From sequence record MH791400.1: a stretch of DNA of 64,000 nucleotides. One strand, written 5' to 3'. Below are positions 21,700 to 51,849 of the stretch, in pieces. The notes below the pieces were generated by a model. That model made no database searches. It was not told where the DNA came from and worked only from the letters and a program-made list of their open reading frames with translations. Each line of letters opens with the position of its first letter. Position 1 is the stretch's first letter. The translations under genes were made by a program, and so were the position numbers. This stretch comes from Escherichia phage EcSzw-2.

Positions 21700-22218
21700 A
21701 TGAAGATTGGAAACAGCTTAACAGAGCCAGAAGCAATTCTGCTTAAGGGTGTTATCAAAGAACATCTTAAAAATCGTAGACTTCAAGAGGGCACAATCCT
21801 TATTGAGACAAACTACGAAGCTGGAACGATTGAGTTTCTTGACGAAGATACTGGTGATGCACTTTGCCTTTTGCCAACTCACCTCTTCACTACTGAGTTT
21901 CGAGATTCTAAATCAATCTCTGTGAAGCTGGTTCCAAGCATTGAGTTGTATGAAGGTATGCAATACCCACGTAGCTTCAAAGCTTTACTTAACATCTTCA
22001 TAGATGATATTGTAGATTTAGTAAGGCCAGAAGCTGGTGAGTATGTAATCACTGCTGAGTGTCAGAATAGCAGCTACATCACTCTTGCTGGCAATCTTTC
22101 AACGATGAACTTCTTAGATTTCATTCCGAAACACTTTGAAGACTTCCTTTCATCGTGTGGTGATGACCTTGATTTCATTGTAAAATTGGAACAAGAATAT
22201 AAGGTGAATAAGAAATGA
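21700..22218 (+). CDS. hypothetical protein (172 aa)
   Basis: ORF track. Confidence 0.4.
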   Translation: MKIGNSLTEPEAILLKGVIKEHLKNRRLQEGTILIETNYEAGTIEFLDEDTGDALCLLPTHLFTTEFRDSKSISVKLVPSIELYEGMQYPRSFKALLNIFIDDIVDLVRPEAGEYVITAECQNSSYITLAGNLSTMNFLDFIPKHFEDFLSSCGDDLDFIVKLEQEYKVNKK

Positions 22219-47854: not shown

Positions 47855-47916
47855 TAAAAAAGCCCTGTCTAAAAATACTCTTCGGTAGCGAAAGGAAGAA
47901 TACTCGTAGCAGGGCG
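47855..47916 (-). terminator. long structured hairpin plus U6-7 downstream of the last tRNA (end of tRNA operon)
   Basis: GCCCTG (47862-47867) pairs with CAGGGC (47910-47915) around a nested hairpin; plus A7 at 47855-47861 gives U-run on minus. Confidence 0.5.
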
Positions 47917-47950
47917 TTATTATTTTATTTTGAGAGAGAGTAAAATAATT

Positions 47951-48026
47951 TGGAGCGTCGAAAGGGAGTCGAACCCTCATAATCCTGTTTTGCAGACAGG
48001 TACATAGCCATTTCTGTCATCGACGC
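47951..48026 (-). tRNA. tRNA-Cys (anticodon GCA)
   Basis: Manual fold: acceptor GCGUCGA/UCGACGC, T-arm GAGGGUUCGACUCCC, anticodon loop CUGCAAA, U73, CCA encoded. Confidence 0.8.
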
Positions 48027-48033
48027 ATTAAAT

Positions 48034-48126
48034 TGGAGGAAGATACCAGACTTGAACTGGTACGCCGATTTCTCGGTTACTGACAGTTTAGCAAACTGTT
48101 CCCTTACCTTTTAGGGTTAATCTTCC
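48034..48126 (-). tRNA. tRNA-Ser (anticodon GCU), type II with long variable arm
   Basis: 93 nt; acceptor GGAAGAU/AUCUUCC; anticodon stem ACAGU/ACUGU with loop UUGCUAA; long extra arm; CCA encoded. Confidence 0.75.
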
Positions 48127-48128
48127 AA

Positions 48129-48863
48129 TTATTTGTTCAAGGCATCCTTCATTTCTGGAGTTGCAATTGAATCAATCACGCCAGTTTTACAAGCATCATC
48201 AAACCAGTCTGGTAAGACACCTGCAAGGAAACCATTAATATTCGTTTTCAAGTAATCAGCAATTAACGCTGCTTCATCTGCAATCATCTGAGTGACCTCA
48301 TTAGTGTATGCAGTAATCTTAGCAATGCCCTGATTAATCGCTGTAACGGCTTGTGAGGCTAAGGAAGAGATAGTGTCTAGTCCTTTGTCGATTGCGTCTT
48401 TTAAGTCGCTTAGAATGCCATTCACAGTGTCTATGGAGGTGTTAATCAAATCCATAGCTTGTTGACCGTACTCTGTAGCTACTCCCATGATTCCACTAAA
48501 CGGTGTACAACCAACTTGTTCTCCTGCTGCACCCATAACGTTAGAGTAACCTTTAGCTACCTGCATACGTGATGAGAACTCATCTACAGAAGTCTGACCG
48601 TATTGAGTCAGTGTGTTAGTTGTCGTTGTAGTGCTTCCAAGGCTCGTTGAGAAGCTACTTAACAAGGCTGTAGTCAAACCAGCAGCAATAAGTTTATCTT
48701 TTACTGTAGGGTCTGATACCGAGCTAATAGAGCTTACTAATGAAGTAGAAGCGGCAATTGTGCCACCAAGGATTGCTGCACCAGTAATAAGGGGGTTGGA
48801 AAACCCGTTACCGGATTTCAGGAGATTAAAAATCTCTTTACCTTGTTCTGTCATCTCTTTCAT
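48129..48863 (-). CDS. hypothetical Ser/Thr-rich protein (244 aa) embedded in tRNA array
   Basis: ORF track; stop at 48129-48131 abuts tRNA-Ser 5' end. Confidence 0.45.
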   Translation of the reverse strand: MKEMTEQGKEIFNLLKSGNGFSNPLITGAAILGGTIAASTSLVSSISSVSDPTVKDKLIAAGLTTALLSSFSTSLGSTTTTTNTLTQYGQTSVDEFSSRMQVAKGYSNVMGAAGEQVGCTPFSGIMGVATEYGQQAMDLINTSIDTVNGILSDLKDAIDKGLDTISSLASQAVTAINQGIAKITAYTNEVTQMIADEAALIADYLKTNINGFLAGVLPDWFDDACKTGVIDSIATPEMKDALNK

Positions 48864-48880
48864 TAAGCACCTTTTGAAAT

Positions 48881-48956
48881 TGGCGGGTTAGTGGGATTTG
48901 AACCCTCTTCTCATGTTTTTCAGACACGCGCTTTAACCATATAAGCTACTTAACCC
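48881..48956 (-). tRNA. tRNA-Phe (anticodon GAA)
   Basis: Acceptor GGGUUAA/CUAACCC (one mismatch), T-loop UUCAAAU, anticodon loop CUGAAAA. Confidence 0.75.
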
Positions 48957-48964
48957 ATTAAATT

Positions 48965-49041
48965 TGGGGTGACCTACGGGAATCGAACCCGTATAGACCA
49001 TGTTCACAGCATGGGTCATTATCCATTTATGATAAGGCCAC
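48965..49041 (-). tRNA. tRNA-His (anticodon GUG)
   Basis: Anticodon stem CCAUG/CAUGG, loop CUGUGAA; discriminator C; T-arm ACGGGUUCGAUUCCCGU. Confidence 0.75.
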
Positions 49042-49072
49042 ATGTAAGGACTCTCGTAAGAACCCTTAGAAG

Positions 49073-49148
49073 TGGCAGCAGCGTAAGGATTTGAACCTTA
49101 ATCTTTCAGCTTCAGAGGCTGGAGCATTGCCAGTTATGCTACACTGCT
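49073..49148 (-). tRNA. tRNA-Gln (anticodon CUG)
   Basis: 76 nt; D-stem GCAU/AUGC; anticodon loop CUCUGAA; discriminator G. Confidence 0.65.
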
Positions 49149-49155
49149 ATTAATT

Positions 49156-49234
49156 TGGTACTCCATATCGGATTCGAACCGATACATAACACAGATTTTA
49201 AGTCTGGCCTCTCTGCCAATTGGAGTAATGGAGC
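49156..49234 (-). tRNA. tRNA with leucine anticodon UAA but short variable region (putative type-I tRNA-Leu)
   Basis: Acceptor GCUCCAU/AUGGAGU; 3-bp D-stem with 11-nt D-loop CAAUUGGCAGA; anticodon loop CUUAAAA; A73; no long extra arm. Confidence 0.5.
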
Positions 49235-49236
49235 AT

Positions 49237-49312
49237 TGGCGGGGGATGTTGGAATTGAACCAACTTCTTCGATTTCAAAGACCGAGGTTTTAACCTTGTA
49301 AACTAATCCCCT
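49237..49312 (-). tRNA. tRNA-Gln (anticodon UUG)
   Basis: D-stem GUUU/AAAC; anticodon stem UCGGU/AUCGA, loop CUUUGAA; T-arm GUUGGUUCAAUUCCAAC; 1-72 mismatch. Confidence 0.6.
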
Positions 49313-49320
49313 TTAAATCT

Positions 49321-49878
49321 TTACTTTCTTAGTGGATGAATAAAGAATGCCAACATAATTCTTTCCCTTGAGAATGCTCTTTCTTCTGGGACAACACTTT
49401 TAAGTTTCCATCCAACATAAATTCTCCAGTAAAACTGTTTACCAAAGACTTTAATTGATGGGATAAAAGCGAATAATCCCCAAGCATTACTATTCCACAT
49501 TAGGAGATAACCTGTCTGATTATCTTCAGGGTTAGAACTTACGTTGATATTACCTTTCCACTTAGTAACATCTTTTACATCTCTTCCCAATACATGGTAA
49601 GAGAAGTTATAAGCTTTGTTTCTCCAGAGCCATCCAACTCTCTGCATATAAACACCGAGCTTGCCAATCTTTCGAATCTTAGCCCACCGTTCAACGTGAC
49701 CTTTGTCACCGTCAATCGGGTTGTCATAAGTCTCCATCCATCTGAATCCAAAAGGCAAGTGACCTTTCTTCTCACTGTAGAATGGAACTACAAAGGGTGC
49801 TAAGATTACTGCTAAGATTGCTGCAAATGGCTCTAGCAAAGCTAGGAAAATCCATGAAGCATACTTCAAATATCTCAT
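49321..49878 (-). CDS. hypothetical membrane protein (185 aa) embedded in tRNA array
   Basis: ORF track; N-terminal hydrophobic segment IFLALLEPFAAILAVILAPFVVPF; C-terminal codons verified against sequence. Confidence 0.45.
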   Translation of the reverse strand: MRYLKYASWIFLALLEPFAAILAVILAPFVVPFYSEKKGHLPFGFRWMETYDNPIDGDKGHVERWAKIRKIGKLGVYMQRVGWLWRNKAYNFSYHVLGRDVKDVTKWKGNINVSSNPEDNQTGYLLMWNSNAWGLFAFIPSIKVFGKQFYWRIYVGWKLKSVVPEERAFSRERIMLAFFIHPLRK

Positions 49879-49897
49879 TTAAATAGCCTCTTTAAAT

Positions 49898-49974
49898 TGG
49901 TGCAGAATAAGGGATTCGAACCCCTAACAAACAACTTCGTAGGTTGCTGCTCTATCCATTTGAACTAATTCTGC
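49898..49974 (-). tRNA. tRNA-Arg (anticodon ACG)
   Basis: Acceptor GCAGAAU/AUUCUGC; anticodon stem GCAAC/GUUGU, loop CUACGAA; T-loop UUCGAAU. Confidence 0.75.
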
Positions 49975-50136
49975 AATGTTCTTTTGAGATTCCTGTCTAG
50001 CTCTCTTCTTATCTCTTCTGAGAAAGCGTCTACGATGGTCTGTACGCCACTTGTAGTAATCTTCTTCACCATCGTGAGAAGCACAGCAACCACAACTTGC
50101 AATTTCAACTTTACCGTGTCTACCATAAGGCTTCAT
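49924..50136 (-). CDS. small Cys-rich basic ORF (70 aa) whose 3' end overlaps tRNA-Arg
   Basis: AGGAGA SD 5 nt upstream of ATG at 50134-50136; CGCC...H motif; last about 17 codons overlap the tRNA on the same strand, so coding status is uncertain. Confidence 0.3.
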   Translation of the reverse strand: MKPYGRHGKVEIASCGCCASHDGEEDYYKWRTDHRRRFLRRDKKRARQESQKNIAELVQMDRAATYEVVC

Positions 50137-50152
50137 AGGAATCTCCTAAAAT

Positions 50153-50230
50153 TGGTGTTCCAAGACGGATTCGAACCGTCACTAATACAAGGTTTGAGCT
50201 TGCATCCTCTGCCAATTGGGATACTGGAAC
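50153..50230 (-). tRNA. tRNA with leucine anticodon CAA but short variable region (putative type-I tRNA-Leu)
   Basis: Acceptor GUUCCAG/UUGGAAC; D-loop CAAUUGGCAGA; anticodon stem GCAAG/CUUGU, loop CUCAAAC; A73. Confidence 0.5.
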
Positions 50231-50232
50231 AT

Positions 50233-50307
50233 TGGTACTCGCTGAAGGACTTGAACCTTCTTCACCAACTTGTAAGGATGGGGCTTTACCGTATAAACTA
50301 AGCGAGT
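50233..50307 (-). tRNA. tRNA-Val (anticodon UAC)
   Basis: Perfect acceptor ACUCGCU/AGCGAGU; anticodon loop CUUACAA; T-arm GAAGGUUCAAGUCCUUC. Confidence 0.8.
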
Positions 50308-50403
50308 ATGAAAAGAGGTCTGAAGTTGTGCCGCTAACTCAACTCCGTGGAATTTGTTACGGTCTTCAGTTGACTCAAGCGGTCTTTCACTCGACCTCTG
50401 AAT

Positions 50404-50480
50404 TGGTGCTGCTCACAGGAGTTGAACCTGCATCTCCATCCTTACAAGGGATGTGTAATAGCCAATTATACGAAAGCAGC
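50404..50480 (-). tRNA. tRNA-Thr (anticodon UGU)
   Basis: Anticodon stem CAUCC/GGAUG perfect, loop CUUGUAA; T-loop UUCAACU. Confidence 0.8.
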
Positions 50481-50486
50481 ATTATT

Positions 50487-50561
50487 TGGAGCATCCAGAG
50501 GGAATCGAACCCTCAACCTCAGTTTGGAAGACTGTAATTTTCCCGTTTAAACTATGGATGC
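50487..50561 (-). tRNA. tRNA-Gly (anticodon UCC)
   Basis: Acceptor GCAUCCA/UGGAUGC; anticodon loop CUUCCAA; T-arm GAGGGUUCGAUUCCCUC. Confidence 0.8.
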
Positions 50562-50567
50562 ACTAAT

Positions 50568-50643
50568 TGGTGGAGAAGCAGGGAATTGAACCCTGTACTT
50601 AAGTTTGCAAAACTTATGTTTTAACCATGTAAACTACATCCCC
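50568..50643 (-). tRNA. tRNA-Ala (anticodon UGC)
   Basis: D-stem GUUU/AAAC; anticodon stem UAAGU/ACUUA, loop UUUGCAA; T-arm CAGGGUUCAAUUCCCUG. Confidence 0.8.
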
Positions 50644-50649
50644 GATATT

Positions 50650-50725
50650 TGGTACAGGTGGAGGGAATTGAACCCATCGTCTTACTGATTAAGAGTCAGC
50701 CGCATAACCATTTTGCTACACCTGC
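50650..50725 (-). tRNA. tRNA-Lys (anticodon CUU), T-stem with two mismatches
   Basis: Acceptor GCAGGUG/CACCUGU; anticodon stem GCUGA/UCAGU, loop CUCUUAA; paralogous to tRNA at 52538-52613. Confidence 0.55.
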
Positions 50726-50732
50726 ATTAATT

Positions 50733-50809
50733 TGGTACACCTAGAGAGAGTCGAACTCACACTGAACAGATTCTAAGTCTGCTGCCTCTTCCAATTGGGC
50801 TATAGGTGC
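50733..50809 (-). tRNA. tRNA with leucine anticodon UAG but short variable region (putative type-I tRNA-Leu)
   Basis: Acceptor GCACCUA/UAGGUGU; D-loop CAAUUGGAAGA; anticodon stem GCAGA/UCUGU, loop CUUAGAA; A73. Confidence 0.5.
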
Positions 50810-50810
50810 A

Positions 50811-51263
50811 TTAAATCAAATGTCTTGAGAATTGACTATGACAATTTGGACACAAGAATCTTAAGTTTTCTTTTCTATCGTCTAACCAGTTTTCGTTGAT
50901 ATGGTCAACATCAAGTGTTAGTGGTTTACCTAACCATTCTGGTTGCTGTCCACACTTAGAGCATTTGTATTCAACACCAGAAGCTATTAAAGCCCTTCTA
51001 AGTTGTGTTGACCTTGCTCTTTCACCTGATTCACGAAGAATCAAGATTTCTTCAGGCTTTCTTTTTGGTAAAGTTTTAACCTTACCTGCCTTTTGTCCAA
51101 GGAAATGAGAAGTATCTAACTCAAACTTCTCTATAACACGTTTCAAGTGTGACTGAGAACCACCTGCTGGTTTTCTTCCAAGCTTGATAAGTACTTCTCT
51201 AAATGATACTGATTCTTTCACTAAAGGTTCAAGAACCTCTTTAGTCAAACTTCTACGTGTCAT
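50811..51263 (-). CDS. HNH homing endonuclease (150 aa) inside the tRNA array
   Basis: C-terminal HNH zinc motif CSKCGQQPEW...LDVDHINENWLDDRKENLRFLCPNCH; stop 50811-50813 two nt from the neighbouring tRNA. Confidence 0.7.
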   Translation of the reverse strand: MTRRSLTKEVLEPLVKESVSFREVLIKLGRKPAGGSQSHLKRVIEKFELDTSHFLGQKAGKVKTLPKRKPEEILILRESGERARSTQLRRALIASGVEYKCSKCGQQPEWLGKPLTLDVDHINENWLDDRKENLRFLCPNCHSQFSRHLI

Positions 51264-51342
51264 GTGTCAATCTCCCATTAAATCTTTGTAGAGAACTGCT
51301 AAGACGCCAAAGCAACAATGGTATCAAATGCCTTAACAATTC

Positions 51343-51366
51343 TCTAAAAAGACCTAACTGGTCTTT
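51343..51366 (-). terminator. hairpin AAAGACC-agtta-GGTCTTT with U-run on minus strand
   Basis: Perfect 7-bp inverted repeat 51348-51354 / 51360-51366, upstream of HNH gene. Confidence 0.45.
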
Positions 51367-51523
51367 GCATAGTCTTGTTTAATCCGGTGACTAGAACCTT
51401 TGGAGAGCTTGATATTATCTCTTCTCCGTGACACCTACTAGGTGCTTTACTGTGCGTGTACGACAATACACGAGGGAAACCGAACGCAACGACGAAGTAG
51501 CGCAGGTCTTAAATCTCATTAGG

Positions 51524-51611
51524 CGGTAGATAAAGGAGTCGAACCCTCACCGTATCACTACAATGGCAACAGTTTTCAAGACTGTTTGGCTTCCATTAGC
51601 CGCTATCTACC
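51524..51611 (-). tRNA. tRNA-Ser (anticodon UGA), type II
   Basis: Acceptor GGUAGAU/AUCUACC; anticodon stem ACAGU/ACUGU, loop CUUGAAA; long variable arm; only CC of CCA encoded. Confidence 0.7.
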
Positions 51612-51624
51612 CCTAATAAGACTT

Positions 51625-51707
51625 TGGCATGGGACGGAGGATTCGAACCCCTTTGAGTAAGTTTTGGAGGCTTACGCTCATGCCTTAGAGTCTTAACATC
51701 GTCCCAT
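51625..51707 (-). tRNA. atypical tRNA, probably tRNA-Trp (anticodon CCA), with about 7 extra nt between acceptor and D-stem
   Basis: Perfect acceptor AUGGGAC/GUCCCAU, T-arm AGGGGUUCGAAUCCUCC, anticodon loop CUCCAAA as in E. coli tRNA-Trp, but 5' region longer than canonical. Confidence 0.4.
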
Positions 51708-51849
51708 ACTACAATTCGAAGCTTACCGTATTATCACAACACTGTAAAGCCCCTTCTCAGATTTTTTACATGTTCTGGAAAACATGAGATACAGACCACC
51801 TCCATACAGGAAGACCCGCTAAGGTCGTCTAAGTAATCTGCTAACTATT

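Follow-up and report, generated by a model that had tools for sequence, protein, structure and literature searches.

Type I tRNA-Leu genes with short variable loops in the tRNA array of a Felix O1-like coliphage

Introduction

We detected three type I (short variable loop) tRNA-Leu genes, with the anticodons UAA, CAA and UAG, in Escherichia phage EcSzw-2 (MH791400.1), a Felix O1-like phage of the Ounavirinae that infects E. coli. The stretch of 64,000 nucleotides that was analysed is referred to below as the window. Structure, conservation, identity elements and family membership of the three genes were observed directly. The genes quite probably encode functional leucine tRNAs, charged by the host LeuRS and decoding UUA/UUG/CUA-type codons; we infer expression, charging and decoding.

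Almost all bacterial tRNA-Leu are of type II, and type I tRNA-Leu has been treated as a rare Streptomyces peculiarity that requires a specialised LeuRS (PMC6614811). The arm-less bacterial tRNA-Leu itself is thus already known from Streptomyces, while the phage tRNA-Leu family is large and barely described. Our literature search found no description of a phage type I tRNA-Leu, only the Streptomyces study (PMC6614811) and a passing mycobacterial remark (PMC6582537).

Results

Three tRNA-Leu genes with a short variable loop

The preliminary description had placed three short tRNA-Leu genes in the array, and ARAGORN and Rfam called them at exactly those positions (Table 1). Each gene has both a covariance score over the threshold (the Rfam RF00005 gathering score is 29 bits) and a call by a dedicated finder, as a canonical cloverleaf tRNA does. 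ARAGORN gave the Leu isotype, the anticodon register described before and no long arm. The structural details proposed from the sequence (the D-arm, A73, the anticodon loops, lengths of 77-79 nt and variable loops of 5-7 nt) were all correct by the cloverleaf parse.

In all three tRNAs an acceptor stem of 7 bp is followed by U8 A9, and a D stem of 3 bp carries an 11-nt D loop, which is CAAUUGGCAGA in Leu-UAA and Leu-CAA and CAAUUGGAAGA in Leu-UAG. The anticodon stem has 5 bp, with a single C27-U43 mismatch in Leu-UAA, and the 7-nt loops with U33 (CUUAAAA, CUCAAAC and CUUAGAA) put the Leu anticodons UAA, CAA and UAG at positions 34-36. The T stem is also of 5 bp, and U50-U64 is mismatched in Leu-UAG. 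Every gene encodes A73 and the CCA end, and the lengths including CCA are 79 nt for Leu-UAA, 78 nt for Leu-CAA and 77 nt for Leu-UAG. Leu-UAA has a G1-U72 wobble, and its minimum-energy fold is not the cloverleaf. Leu-UAG carries A37, and G37 is absent.

The variable loops are GUUAUGU (7 nt) in Leu-UAA, AUUAGU (6 nt) in Leu-CAA and UCAGU (5 nt) in Leu-UAG according to the parse. In a canonical type II tRNA the variable arm exceeds 10 nt and folds into a stem-loop; the host regions measure 13-15 nt. The three genes are type I tRNA-Leu, since the anticodon register is the same in ARAGORN and Rfam and the sequences allow no long arm.

Table 1. Positions of the array, the three tRNA-Leu genes and other array tRNAs in the window
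Feature	Position	Strand	Detection
tRNA array, 26 recognisable tRNAs including 3 Leu	47951..53756	-	ARAGORN (24), Rfam (adds Glu), Tyr by hand
tRNA-Ser(GCU), 93 nt, long variable arm kept, internal control	48034..48126	-	ARAGORN
tRNA-Leu(UAA), type I	49156..49234	-	ARAGORN; Rfam RF00005 47.5 bits; cloverleaf parse
tRNA-Leu(CAA), type I	50153..50230	-	ARAGORN; Rfam RF00005 44.0 bits; cloverleaf parse
tRNA-Leu(UAG), type I	50733..50809	-	ARAGORN; Rfam RF00005 54.1 bits; cloverleaf parse
tRNA-Ser(UGA), 90 nt, long variable arm kept, internal control	51522..51611	-	ARAGORN
tRNA-Tyr(GUA), 88 nt, 15-nt variable arm kept, internal control	53123..53210	-	by hand
tRNA-Glu	53601-53672	-	Rfam only

The tRNA array and leucine codon use

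According to the Rfam scan of the whole 86.8-kb genome, the array is its only tRNA-bearing region. The lack of a type II tRNA-Leu, pointed out earlier for the array, extends to the entire genome: no canonical type II tRNA-Leu was found by ARAGORN (window and remaining 22 kb) or Rfam (86.8 kb), and a regular expression for the Leu-type D-arm, run over 86.8 kb, matched only the three Leu genes and, by chance, one site within a coding region. The accompanying remark that the array covers every other amino acid mostly stands, with the exception of tRNA-Trp, which was not found in the array. The tRNA-Tyr, missed by ARAGORN and Rfam, is identical to the tRNAscan-SE-annotated tRNA-Tyr of phage CHB7. 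A weak tRNA-like remnant lies at 52810-52873 in the array.

The search for a phage-encoded LeuRS by tblastn with E. coli LeuRS returned chance matches only (E above 5), and Pfam detected only DUFs and an HNH nuclease, and no tRNA enzyme, among the six ORFs in or adjoining the array. The host LeuRS is therefore the sole candidate enzyme for charging.

The phage has a GC content of 40%, and the Leu codon shares in the 59 window ORFs are 21% for UUA, 17.5% for UUG, 29% for CUU, 7.6% for CUA and 19% for CUG. In E. coli, CUG makes up roughly 50% of Leu codons. UUA, UUG and CUA are used more by the phage than by E. coli. The UAA and CAA anticodons would decode UUA and UUG, and UAG would decode CUA/CUG, so the codons served by the three tRNAs would be those Leu codons that the phage uses beyond the E. 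coli supply.

Conservation and the short-loop family

Across 215 phage records, the Leu-UAA gene keeps an identity of 99% or more, with 100% in Felix O1 among them. It is also 100% identical in Citrobacter phage Michonne, the whole array of which is only 88.5% identical. Such near-identity in 215 records, despite about 12% divergence of the surrounding DNA, points to purifying selection. The Leu-CAA sequence recurs without change in five more of the loci fetched, including the relatives CHB7 and L018, and the three Leu isoacceptors are kept in phages of Escherichia, Salmonella, Citrobacter, Shigella and Erwinia. Phage FG1m has a chimera that arose by fusion of the CAA and UAA genes.

These data bear on the possibility that the genes are pseudogenes in decay, or remnants of tRNAs gained by horizontal transfer, and non-functional in enterobacterial hosts. 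The mismatched pairs (anticodon stem of Leu-UAA, T stem of Leu-UAG), the degenerate array elements (the remnant and the tRNA-Tyr missed by both programs) and the FG1m chimera would fit decay, but the stems are otherwise intact, CCA is encoded, the Rfam scores are well over the threshold, Leu-UAA has stayed nearly invariant while its surroundings diverged, and the three isoacceptors persist in phages of the genera named above. We consider decay very unlikely.

Covariation within the Felix O1 group was uninformative, the genes being almost invariant, and the family-wide covariation was used instead. RNAalifold analysis of 51 diverse members detected double compensatory changes at 21/21 pairs, in support of the family cloverleaf, and predicted no variable arm. 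At least 170 distinct viral sequences carry the family signature (U8A9, C13, NCAGU loop), as do single genes on the chromosomes of many Actinomycetota. Both collection scans covered at least 120 loci each, and the figures are lower bounds and not distributions; the genome matches listed are nearly all from Actinomycetota, perhaps partly owing to scan order. Among the matches listed, A73 is present in 169/170 viral members, U48 in 168/170 and the AA/U combination (A14, A15, U48) in 162/170, and U8A9/C13 is found in 152/170 viral and 104/107 bacterial members, as well as in all three window genes. Type II Leu genes at the same loci have U8G9, and G, A or U at position 13. The variable loop is of 5 nt in 165/170 viral members among the matches listed, a statistic biased towards NCAGU by the CAGUG that the collection pattern required.

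Leu-UAG has the full U8A9/C13/NCAGU signature, and the loops of Leu-UAA and Leu-CAA likewise end in GU but are of 7 and 6 nt. In sequence, the window genes lie nearer to the family than to E. coli tRNA-Leu or the remaining phage tRNAs. Their best identity to actinobacterial members is 0.82-0.88 (means 0.65-0.73), which for such short sequences is supportive only; the mean identity of the three phage Leu to the other tRNAs of the same phage, again for short sequences, is 0.47-0.54. At position 37 of Leu-UAG, A37 occurs in 41/57 phage and G37 in 15/17 actinobacterial sequences among the matches listed. Sequence comparison indicates that the short loop is inherited within a widespread short-loop tRNA-Leu lineage and does not come from a recent deletion. 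This lineage occurs in phages of several bacterial phyla and on Actinomycetota chromosomes, and appears to include the S. coelicolor kind. Among 5,426 complete E. coli genomes, none matched the phage tRNA-Leu, and plasmid matches to short-loop tRNA-Leu were from Actinobacteria and one Nostoc only.

LeuRS identity elements and charging

The decisive elements for E. coli LeuRS are A73, A15-U48, G18G19, A20a and the D/T-loop contacts; tRNA-Leu variants without the long arm and the anticodon arm stay active, and the arm is outside the published identity set (PMC9976931). The dependence of LeuRS on A73 and the tertiary core and not on the extra arm, as stated in the preliminary description, agrees with this review. 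All sequence-readable E. coli LeuRS determinants (A73, U8, A14, A15, U48, G18G19 and the T loop) are present in the three phage tRNAs. Each can form U8:A14 and the A15-U48 Levitt pair, U48 being the last variable-loop base, and the T loops, UUCGAAU or UUCGACU, are able to form G18:U55, G19:C56 and U54:A58. The phage D loop CAAUUGG(C/A)AGA (N-AAUUGG-N-AGA) has the length and register of the host tRNA-Leu D loops, which are also of 11 nt (GAAUCGGUAGA in leuZ, AAAUCGGUAGA in leuX and AAAUUGGUAGA in leuW), and G18G19 and A20a are placed alike.

According to the proposed mechanism, the three tRNAs would be transcribed within the phage array and matured by host enzymes, with CCA pre-encoded. The host LeuRS would then leucylate them, ignoring the anticodon and needing no extra arm, by reading A73 and the tertiary core (U8:A14, A15-U48, and the correctly placed D-loop G18G19 in contact with the T loop).

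The same positions were examined for charging with a non-leucine amino acid, by which the phage would deliberately mistranslate or recode Leu codons. An arm-less body does resemble an ordinary type I tRNA, and A73 is common to many E. coli tRNAs, but most other E. coli synthetases need their own anticodon (PMC9976931), and here the anticodons are those of Leu. The anticodon-independent AlaRS and SerRS are ruled out because the AlaRS determinant G3:U70 is absent (the 3:70 pairs are U-A, U-A and A-U), as are the long arm and G73 that SerRS requires. The D arm is moreover specifically Leu-like, and the same family supplies single chromosomal tRNA-Leu genes of Actinomycetota, with a leucylated relative in S. 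coelicolor (PMC6614811). Such mischarging is highly improbable.

SerRS reads the size of the long variable arm (PMC9976931). Within the array, only Leu, with its arm-independent synthetase, lost the arm, and the Ser and Tyr tRNAs kept theirs (Table 1). Bacterial TyrRS binds tRNA-Tyr's long variable arm. The same pattern was observed at 120 or more viral loci, where Leu tRNAs are mostly of 72-79 nt, Ser of 80-97 nt and Tyr mostly of 80-94 nt.

Published biochemistry is less favourable to leucylation by the host. When offered the S. coelicolor type I tRNA-Leu(CAA) in vitro, E. coli LeuRS gave no leucylation, ScoLeuRS was described as the sole prokaryotic LeuRS charging both tRNA-Leu types, and variable-loop length was reported to matter (PMC6614811); according to earlier work as cited there, tRNAs whose variable loop is large are preferred by the leucine-specific domain of the E. 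coli enzyme. Features of the phage tRNAs that also speak against the functional reading are the atypical 7- and 6-nt loops of Leu-UAA and Leu-CAA, the C27-U43 mismatch and non-cloverleaf minimum-energy fold of Leu-UAA, and the U-U mismatch and missing G37 of Leu-UAG.

The in vitro rejection would be expected if the tRNAs were made but were poor or null substrates of enterobacterial LeuRS, with a non-translational role in array processing or spacing, or as decoys or replacements that weaken host defence nucleases directed at tRNAs. As described in PMC10264068, phage tRNAs counter anticodon nucleases and their anticodon loops are often altered, and phage Leu-UAG does have A37 where cellular Leu-UAG usually has G37. 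A decoy would not need the near-absolute conservation of A73, U48, A14-A15 and G18G19 found among the matches listed, which selection for aminoacylation predicts; the anticodon set fits the phage codon bias; the Ser and Tyr arms are kept exactly where the synthetases need them; and our literature search found no bacterial nuclease against tRNA-Leu or its long arm. We therefore regard a purely non-translational role as improbable.

Discussion

Comparison with known tRNA-Leu

The S. coelicolor type I tRNA-Leu(CAA) has a 5-nt variable loop and is leucylated by a bacterial LeuRS (PMC6614811). Type I Leu(CAA) genes of other Streptomyces species have U8A9, C13, an ACAGU loop, A73 and A15-U48, as in the signature of the window genes, but their D loop is of 12 nt (CAAUUGGCAGCA) compared to the 11-nt E. 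coli-like D loop of the phage. The S. coelicolor gene is chromosomal, in a high-GC actinomycete with a LeuRS reportedly adapted via its leucine-specific domain (PMC6614811), whereas the window genes are phage-borne, in a host with type II tRNA-Leu only, have an encoded CCA, and two of them have loops of 6-7 nt.

The E. coli leuZ(UAA), leuX(CAA) and leuW(UAG) genes have the same anticodons as the phage three and share with them A73, U8:A14, A15-U48, the 11-nt D loop, the G18G19 position and the 3-bp D stem; leuZ also has a G1-U72 wobble, as phage Leu-UAA does. In length, the host tRNAs reach 85-87 nt, and their variable arms measure 13-15 nt against loops of 5-7 nt in the phage tRNAs. Position 9 is G in the host and A in the phage, position 13 is G or A in the host and C in the phage, and position 37 is G in leuW and A in phage Leu-UAG. 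With the acceptor stem and variable region left aside, phage UAA, CAA and UAG have identities of only 0.57, 0.57 and 0.73 to their E. coli counterparts.

Engineered E. coli tRNA-Leu without the variable arm, the anticodon arm or both was aminoacylated and edited by E. coli LeuRS if A73 and the D/T contacts were intact (Larkin et al. 2002, cited through the review PMC9976931), and the mechanism proposed for the phage tRNAs is the same. These constructs, as described there, were laboratory-made from a type II body, and the phage genes are natural and conserved and differ in the core, where they have A9 and C13. Type I tRNA-Leu also occurs in animal mitochondria, as tRNA-Leu(UUR) and tRNA-Leu(CUN); A73 and A14 serve as determinants, and charging proceeds in the absence of a long arm (PMC9976931). 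These tRNAs have a dedicated mitochondrial LeuRS, are floppy and AT-rich and have no specific sequence kinship with the phage family, so they serve as an analogy only.

Significance of the arm-less tRNA-Leu

The coliphage genes and their hundreds of relatives suggest that arm-less tRNA-Leu is common on mobile DNA and in Actinomycetota, and that an ordinary enterobacterial LeuRS probably handles it. It is possible, although doubtful, that the arm loss is adaptive and has produced a portable Leu adaptor (A73 and core), with one Actinomycetota-linked lineage spread across phages and the T5-like one arising independently. If so, no host would take an arm-less tRNA-Leu for tRNA-Ser or tRNA-Tyr, and such a tRNA might evade host factors recognising type II tRNAs; the lineage would have reached phages of Proteobacteria, Firmicutes, Actinobacteria and Cyanobacteria; and enterobacterial LeuRS would be an efficient enzyme for type I tRNA-Leu in vivo, against the view that among prokaryotic LeuRS only ScoLeuRS charges both types (PMC6614811).

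Leucylation of the three tRNAs by E. coli LeuRS would revise the stated limits of this enzyme and would offer naturally occurring, compact tRNA-Leu scaffolds to suppressor and genetic-code engineering. tRNA exchange among phages of different phyla can be traced with the family signature as a marker.

Probable arm loss in T5-like phages

T5-like coliphages (T5, EPS7) and the transferred tRNA clusters of mycobacteria likewise carry tRNA-Leu in arrays on mobile DNA, and a short-loop tRNA-Leu(UAG) is mentioned in passing for the mycobacterial clusters (PMC6582537). T5 Leu-UAG was considered as a reduced-arm intermediate and rejected: it is an ordinary type II tRNA with a 13-nt arm, as long as the arms of leuX and leuW in E. 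coli. For T5 tRNAs, the GenBank record of T5 mentions a test by conversion to amber suppressors.

In EPS7, Leu-UAA belongs to type I, and its variable loop has 5 nt. Type I Leu genes of EPS7 and of Aeromonas phage differ in the D arm, where they have G13 and the loop GAAYUGGCAUA, and their variable loops finish with UU or CU (GUUUU, GUUCU, AUUCU); the Aeromonas-phage genes have U8G9 and EPS7 has U8A9. By these sequence features they look like a separate lineage with an independent loss of the arm, and this second lineage in EPS7 suggests that coliphages tolerate repeated arm loss. The EPS7 Leu-UAG gene beside Leu-UAA, with a loop of 9 nt, is a real intermediate.

Structure of the three short tRNA-Leu genes

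The three short leucine-anticodon genes of the EcSzw-2 array are type I tRNA-Leu, and quite probably working leucine tRNAs charged by the host LeuRS; this interpretation, proposed in the preliminary description, is the best one. ARAGORN and Rfam (tRNA model threshold 29 bits) agree on their anticodons and positions. The cloverleaf parse showed in all three a 7-bp acceptor stem followed by U8 A9, a 3-bp D stem closing an 11-nt loop, CAAUUGG(C/A)AGA, a 5-bp T stem with the loop UUCGAAU or UUCGACU, and A73 with encoded CCA. The 5-bp anticodon stems of Leu-UAA, Leu-CAA and Leu-UAG carry the loops CUUAAAA, CUCAAAC and CUUAGAA, and the variable loops are of 7 nt (GUUAUGU), 6 nt (AUUAGU) and 5 nt (UCAGU), respectively. 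The Leu-like D arm, A73, anticodon loops and short variable loops had thus all been described correctly; the small flaws are one mismatch each in Leu-UAA (C27-U43) and Leu-UAG (U50-U64).

Positions of the tRNA genes and neighbouring elements (window coordinates unless a fetched phage locus is named)
Feature	Position	Strand	Detection
tRNA array, 24 tRNA genes	47951-53756	-	ARAGORN
tRNA-Leu(UAA)	49156-49234	-	ARAGORN; Rfam 47.5 bits
tRNA-Leu(CAA)	50153-50230	-	ARAGORN; Rfam 44.0 bits
tRNA-Leu(UAG)	50733-50809	-	ARAGORN; Rfam 54.1 bits
HNH endonuclease ORF	50811-51263	-	
tRNA-like match	52810-52873	-	30.6 bits
tRNA-Tyr(GUA), 88 nt, 15-nt variable arm	53123-53210	-	identity to tRNAscan-SE call in phage CHB7
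tRNA-Glu(UUC)	53598-53672 (Rfam 53601-53672)	-	Rfam only, 53.7 bits
DUF2828/DUF7788 protein, 423 aa	53924-55195	-	
EPS7 tRNA-Leu(UAA)	L259 5988-6064		
EPS7 tRNA-Leu(UAG)	L259 11625-11705		
FG1m chimeric tRNA-Leu(CAA)	L005 4999-5076		

ARAGORN and Rfam detected no tRNA outside the array in the remainder of the genome. The claim that a canonical type II tRNA-Leu is missing from the array extends to the whole genome by ARAGORN, Rfam and a D-arm regular expression; apart from the three genes, the latter matched a Leu-type D arm just once, by chance, inside coding sequence.

LeuRS identity elements and charging

The independence of E. coli LeuRS from the extra arm, put forward in the preliminary description, agrees with the literature: anticodon and long arm are dispensable, variants without both are still charged, and the U8:A14 pair is important in leucine recognition (PMC9976931). 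All the sequence-readable LeuRS determinants listed from that paper were found in the three phage tRNAs. The fetched host genes leuZ, leuX and leuW, parsed beside the phage genes, have the D loops GAAUCGGUAGA, AAAUCGGUAGA and AAAUUGGUAGA, equal to the phage loops in their 11-nt length and AA..GG.AGA register. Of the determinants read by the anticodon-independent synthetases besides LeuRS, neither G3:U70 (AlaRS; cloverleaf parse) nor the long arm and G73 (SerRS) occur in the three tRNAs. We detected no LeuRS homologue in the phage genome and no tRNA-related enzyme inside or adjoining the array.

Long arms are not shed generally by the phage and are lost in Leu only, as in the same array tRNA-Tyr, of 88 nt, keeps a 15-nt arm and the two Ser tRNAs measure 93 and 90 nt. 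This confinement would be expected if all these tRNAs stay under selection for charging by host enzymes. Bacterial TyrRS binds the long arm. The size of the long arm is the main identity element for SerRS (PMC9976931).

Against host charging, the S. coelicolor type I tRNA-Leu(CAA) was not charged in vitro by E. coli LeuRS, ScoLeuRS was described as the sole prokaryotic LeuRS charging both types, and the 5-nt loop length was stated to matter (Fan et al., PMC6614811). Because of this negative, charging is not to be assumed, chiefly for the 6-nt loop of Leu-CAA and the 7-nt loop of Leu-UAA. The type I Leu(CAA) genes recovered from other Streptomyces species, however, have a 12-nt D loop, CAAUUGGCAGCA, whereas the D loops of the window genes follow the 11-nt layout of E. 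coli; since E. coli LeuRS reads D-loop geometry as a determinant, the negative, obtained with S. coelicolor tRNA, may not be directly transferable. Part of the interest of type I tRNA-Leu is that they offer a simple way to probe how far E. coli LeuRS reaches.

Type I tRNA-Leu family in phages

How common type I tRNA-Leu proves on phage genomes is a further point of interest. In unrelated phages, BLAST of the Leu genes at relaxed stringency matched sequences annotated tRNA-Leu over the full length and without gaps; re-calling of the fetched matches confirmed tRNA-Leu genes 74-78 nt long. In most of them U8A9 is combined with C13 (D loop CAA..GGCAGA) and the 5-nt loop NCAGU.

Short tRNA-Leu genes re-called in unrelated phages
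Phage	Group	Short tRNA-Leu	Other tRNA-Leu
Aeromonas phage AhP_Mru1	Demerecviridae	3	none seen
Lactobacillus phage LpeD	Herelleviridae	3	none seen
Cronobacter phage CR3	Vequintavirinae	2	none seen
Mycobacterium phage GardenSalsa	Vilmaviridae	2	none seen
Mycobacterium phage ET08	Bixzunavirus	at least 1	
Streptomyces phage LilMartin	Stanwilliamsviridae	at least 1	
Rhodococcus phage Trina	Trinavirus	1	one type II
Enterococcus phage Bop	Herelleviridae	1	one type II

The family pattern (anticodon loop, NCAGU variable loop and T arm) matched at least 120 IMG/VR loci. Among the loci listed, ARAGORN called 170 distinct type I tRNA-Leu versus 26 type II; type I was alone in 89 loci and both types were present in 20, with tRNA-Ser of 80-97 nt throughout. 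The type I sequences have A73 (169 of 170), U48 (168 of 170) and a 5-nt variable loop (165 of 170, a loop that the search pattern itself includes). RNAalifold of 51 diverse members gave a cloverleaf without variable arm, with double compensatory changes at 21 of 21 predicted pairs. BLAST with the family consensus detected 692 phage records, whose hosts include Salmonella, Mycobacterium, Escherichia, Erwinia, Streptomyces, Vibrio, Pseudomonas, Lactobacillus, Gordonia, Bacillus and Prochlorococcus.

A distinct D arm and variable loop mark what looks like a second lineage, the type I tRNA-Leu of an Aeromonas T5-like phage and of the E. coli T5-like phage EPS7, with the D loop GAAYUGGCAUA, G13 and variable loops ending in UU or CU (GUUUU, GUUCU, AUUCU). 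Type II Leu genes have U8G9, and so do the Aeromonas genes; EPS7 has U8A9. U8G9 was also found in a dozen listed IMG/VR type I sequences, several with the GAAYUGGCAUA-type D arm. EPS7 combines in one genome a true type I Leu-UAA and a Leu-UAG whose 9-nt variable region, UCUUCGGGU, is a mini-arm intermediate between type I and II lengths; T5 has an ordinary 13-nt arm. The 5-nt and 9-nt loops of EPS7 and the 13-nt arm of T5 make graded arm lengths among E. coli phages, and the arm was apparently lost more than once.

A37 occurs in 41 of 57 phage tRNA-Leu(UAG) sequences, the window gene included; G37 is found in 15 of 17 cellular type I Leu-UAG genes and in E. coli leuW. TrmD requires G36-G37 for m1G37, so this frame-keeping modification would be missing from the A37 tRNAs.

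Cellular relatives and previous reports

The family pattern matched at least 120 loci in GTDB genomes, nearly all from Actinomycetota among the matches listed (the scan order may favour this phylum), including Streptomyces, Mycobacterium, Rhodococcus, Nocardiopsis, Pseudonocardia, Bifidobacterium, Corynebacterium, Arthrobacter and Demequina. Most listed loci, spanning as much as 14 kb of large chromosomal contigs, contain no tRNA besides the type I tRNA-Leu, and isoacceptors of one genome are often on separate contigs; these look like ordinary chromosomal genes. Many Actinomycetota among the listed GTDB loci (L138-L257) carry type I tRNA-Leu (UAA, CAA or UAG) in the form of single chromosomal genes, and a few loci (e.g., L150, L162, L204) are big tRNA arrays with type I Leu genes. 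Among the matches listed, 99 of 107 cellular type I Leu have U8A9, C13 and NCAGU, and they are of the kind described by Fan et al. as S. coelicolor tRNA-Leu(CAA) (PMC6614811).

With acceptor stem and variable region excluded, the best identities of the window tRNAs are 0.82-0.88 to actinobacterial genes versus 0.57, 0.57 and 0.73 to the same-anticodon E. coli tRNA-Leu, and means of 0.47-0.54 to the other tRNAs of the phage. No similar tRNA was found in 5,426 complete E. coli genomes.

Short tRNA-Leu genes have long been annotated 'tRNA-Leu' in GenBank. Full-text literature search found no discussion of type I tRNA-Leu in phages, and the phrase 'type I tRNALeu' matched the Streptomyces paper (PMC6614811) only; a passing remark concerns the short variable loop of tRNA-Leu(UAG) in a horizontally transferred mycobacterial tRNA cluster (PMC6582537). 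Rather than forming a new class, the phage genes fall into a kind that is already known, though little appreciated, and single-gene type I tRNA-Leu in Actinomycetota far exceeds the one Streptomyces case of the literature.

Codon demand, conservation and the remainder of the array

Leu codons in 59 long window ORFs are UUA (21%), UUG (17.5%), CUU (29%), CUC (5%), CUA (7.6%) and CUG (19%), while in E. coli CUG makes up about half of Leu codons and UUA and CUA are rare. The anticodons UAA, CAA and UAG match the Leu codons over-used by the phage.

The region 47900-53800 is 100% identical to Escherichia phage EcSzw_1 (MH791413.1; Ounavirinae, Suspvirus; 86,813 bp; window position 1 is position 22186 of that record). 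Hundreds of Felix O1-like phages, infecting Escherichia, Salmonella, Shigella, Citrobacter and Erwinia, match it at 85-97% identity. Across 215 phage records Leu-UAA keeps an identity of at least 99%, with 100% in Felix O1 and also in Citrobacter phage Michonne, which has an array of 88.5% overall identity. The tRNA-Leu genes of E. coli/Shigella phage CHB7 and Erwinia phage phiEa21-4 are all short. In the fetched locus of Salmonella phage FG1m, tRNA-Leu(CAA) is a chimera, with the 5' part from the CAA gene and the 3' strands of T stem and acceptor stem from the UAA gene; about 1 kb between these paralogues is gone, apparently by recombination at the identical T-arm sequence GGUUCGAAUCCG, and the acceptor stem pairs just 6 of 7 bp.

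The preliminary statement that all the other amino acids have a tRNA in the array fails for Trp, which is absent, and holds otherwise, with Glu detected via Rfam only and Tyr by hand. The Erwinia relative phiEa21-4 does have tRNA-Trp. The tRNA-Glu(UUC) anticodon loop, CCUUCAA, has C33 instead of the near-universal U33, and the anticodon stem contains a C-U mismatch. The tRNA-Tyr(GUA), missed by ARAGORN and by Rfam at gathering score, has a badly paired D stem and a U50-U64 mismatch, and is labelled 'tRNA-Pseudo-GTA' in another relative. The tRNA-like match, barely over threshold with a good T arm and an unconvincing 5' half, is likely to be the remnant of a tRNA gene.

The HNH endonuclease ORF ends 2 nt away from the Leu-UAG gene start, and ORFs of the DUF7217 and DUF7338 families also lie within the array. 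The DUF2828/DUF7788 protein, directly upstream of the array, is annotated in relatives as vWA-like or 'RNA-binding protein'.
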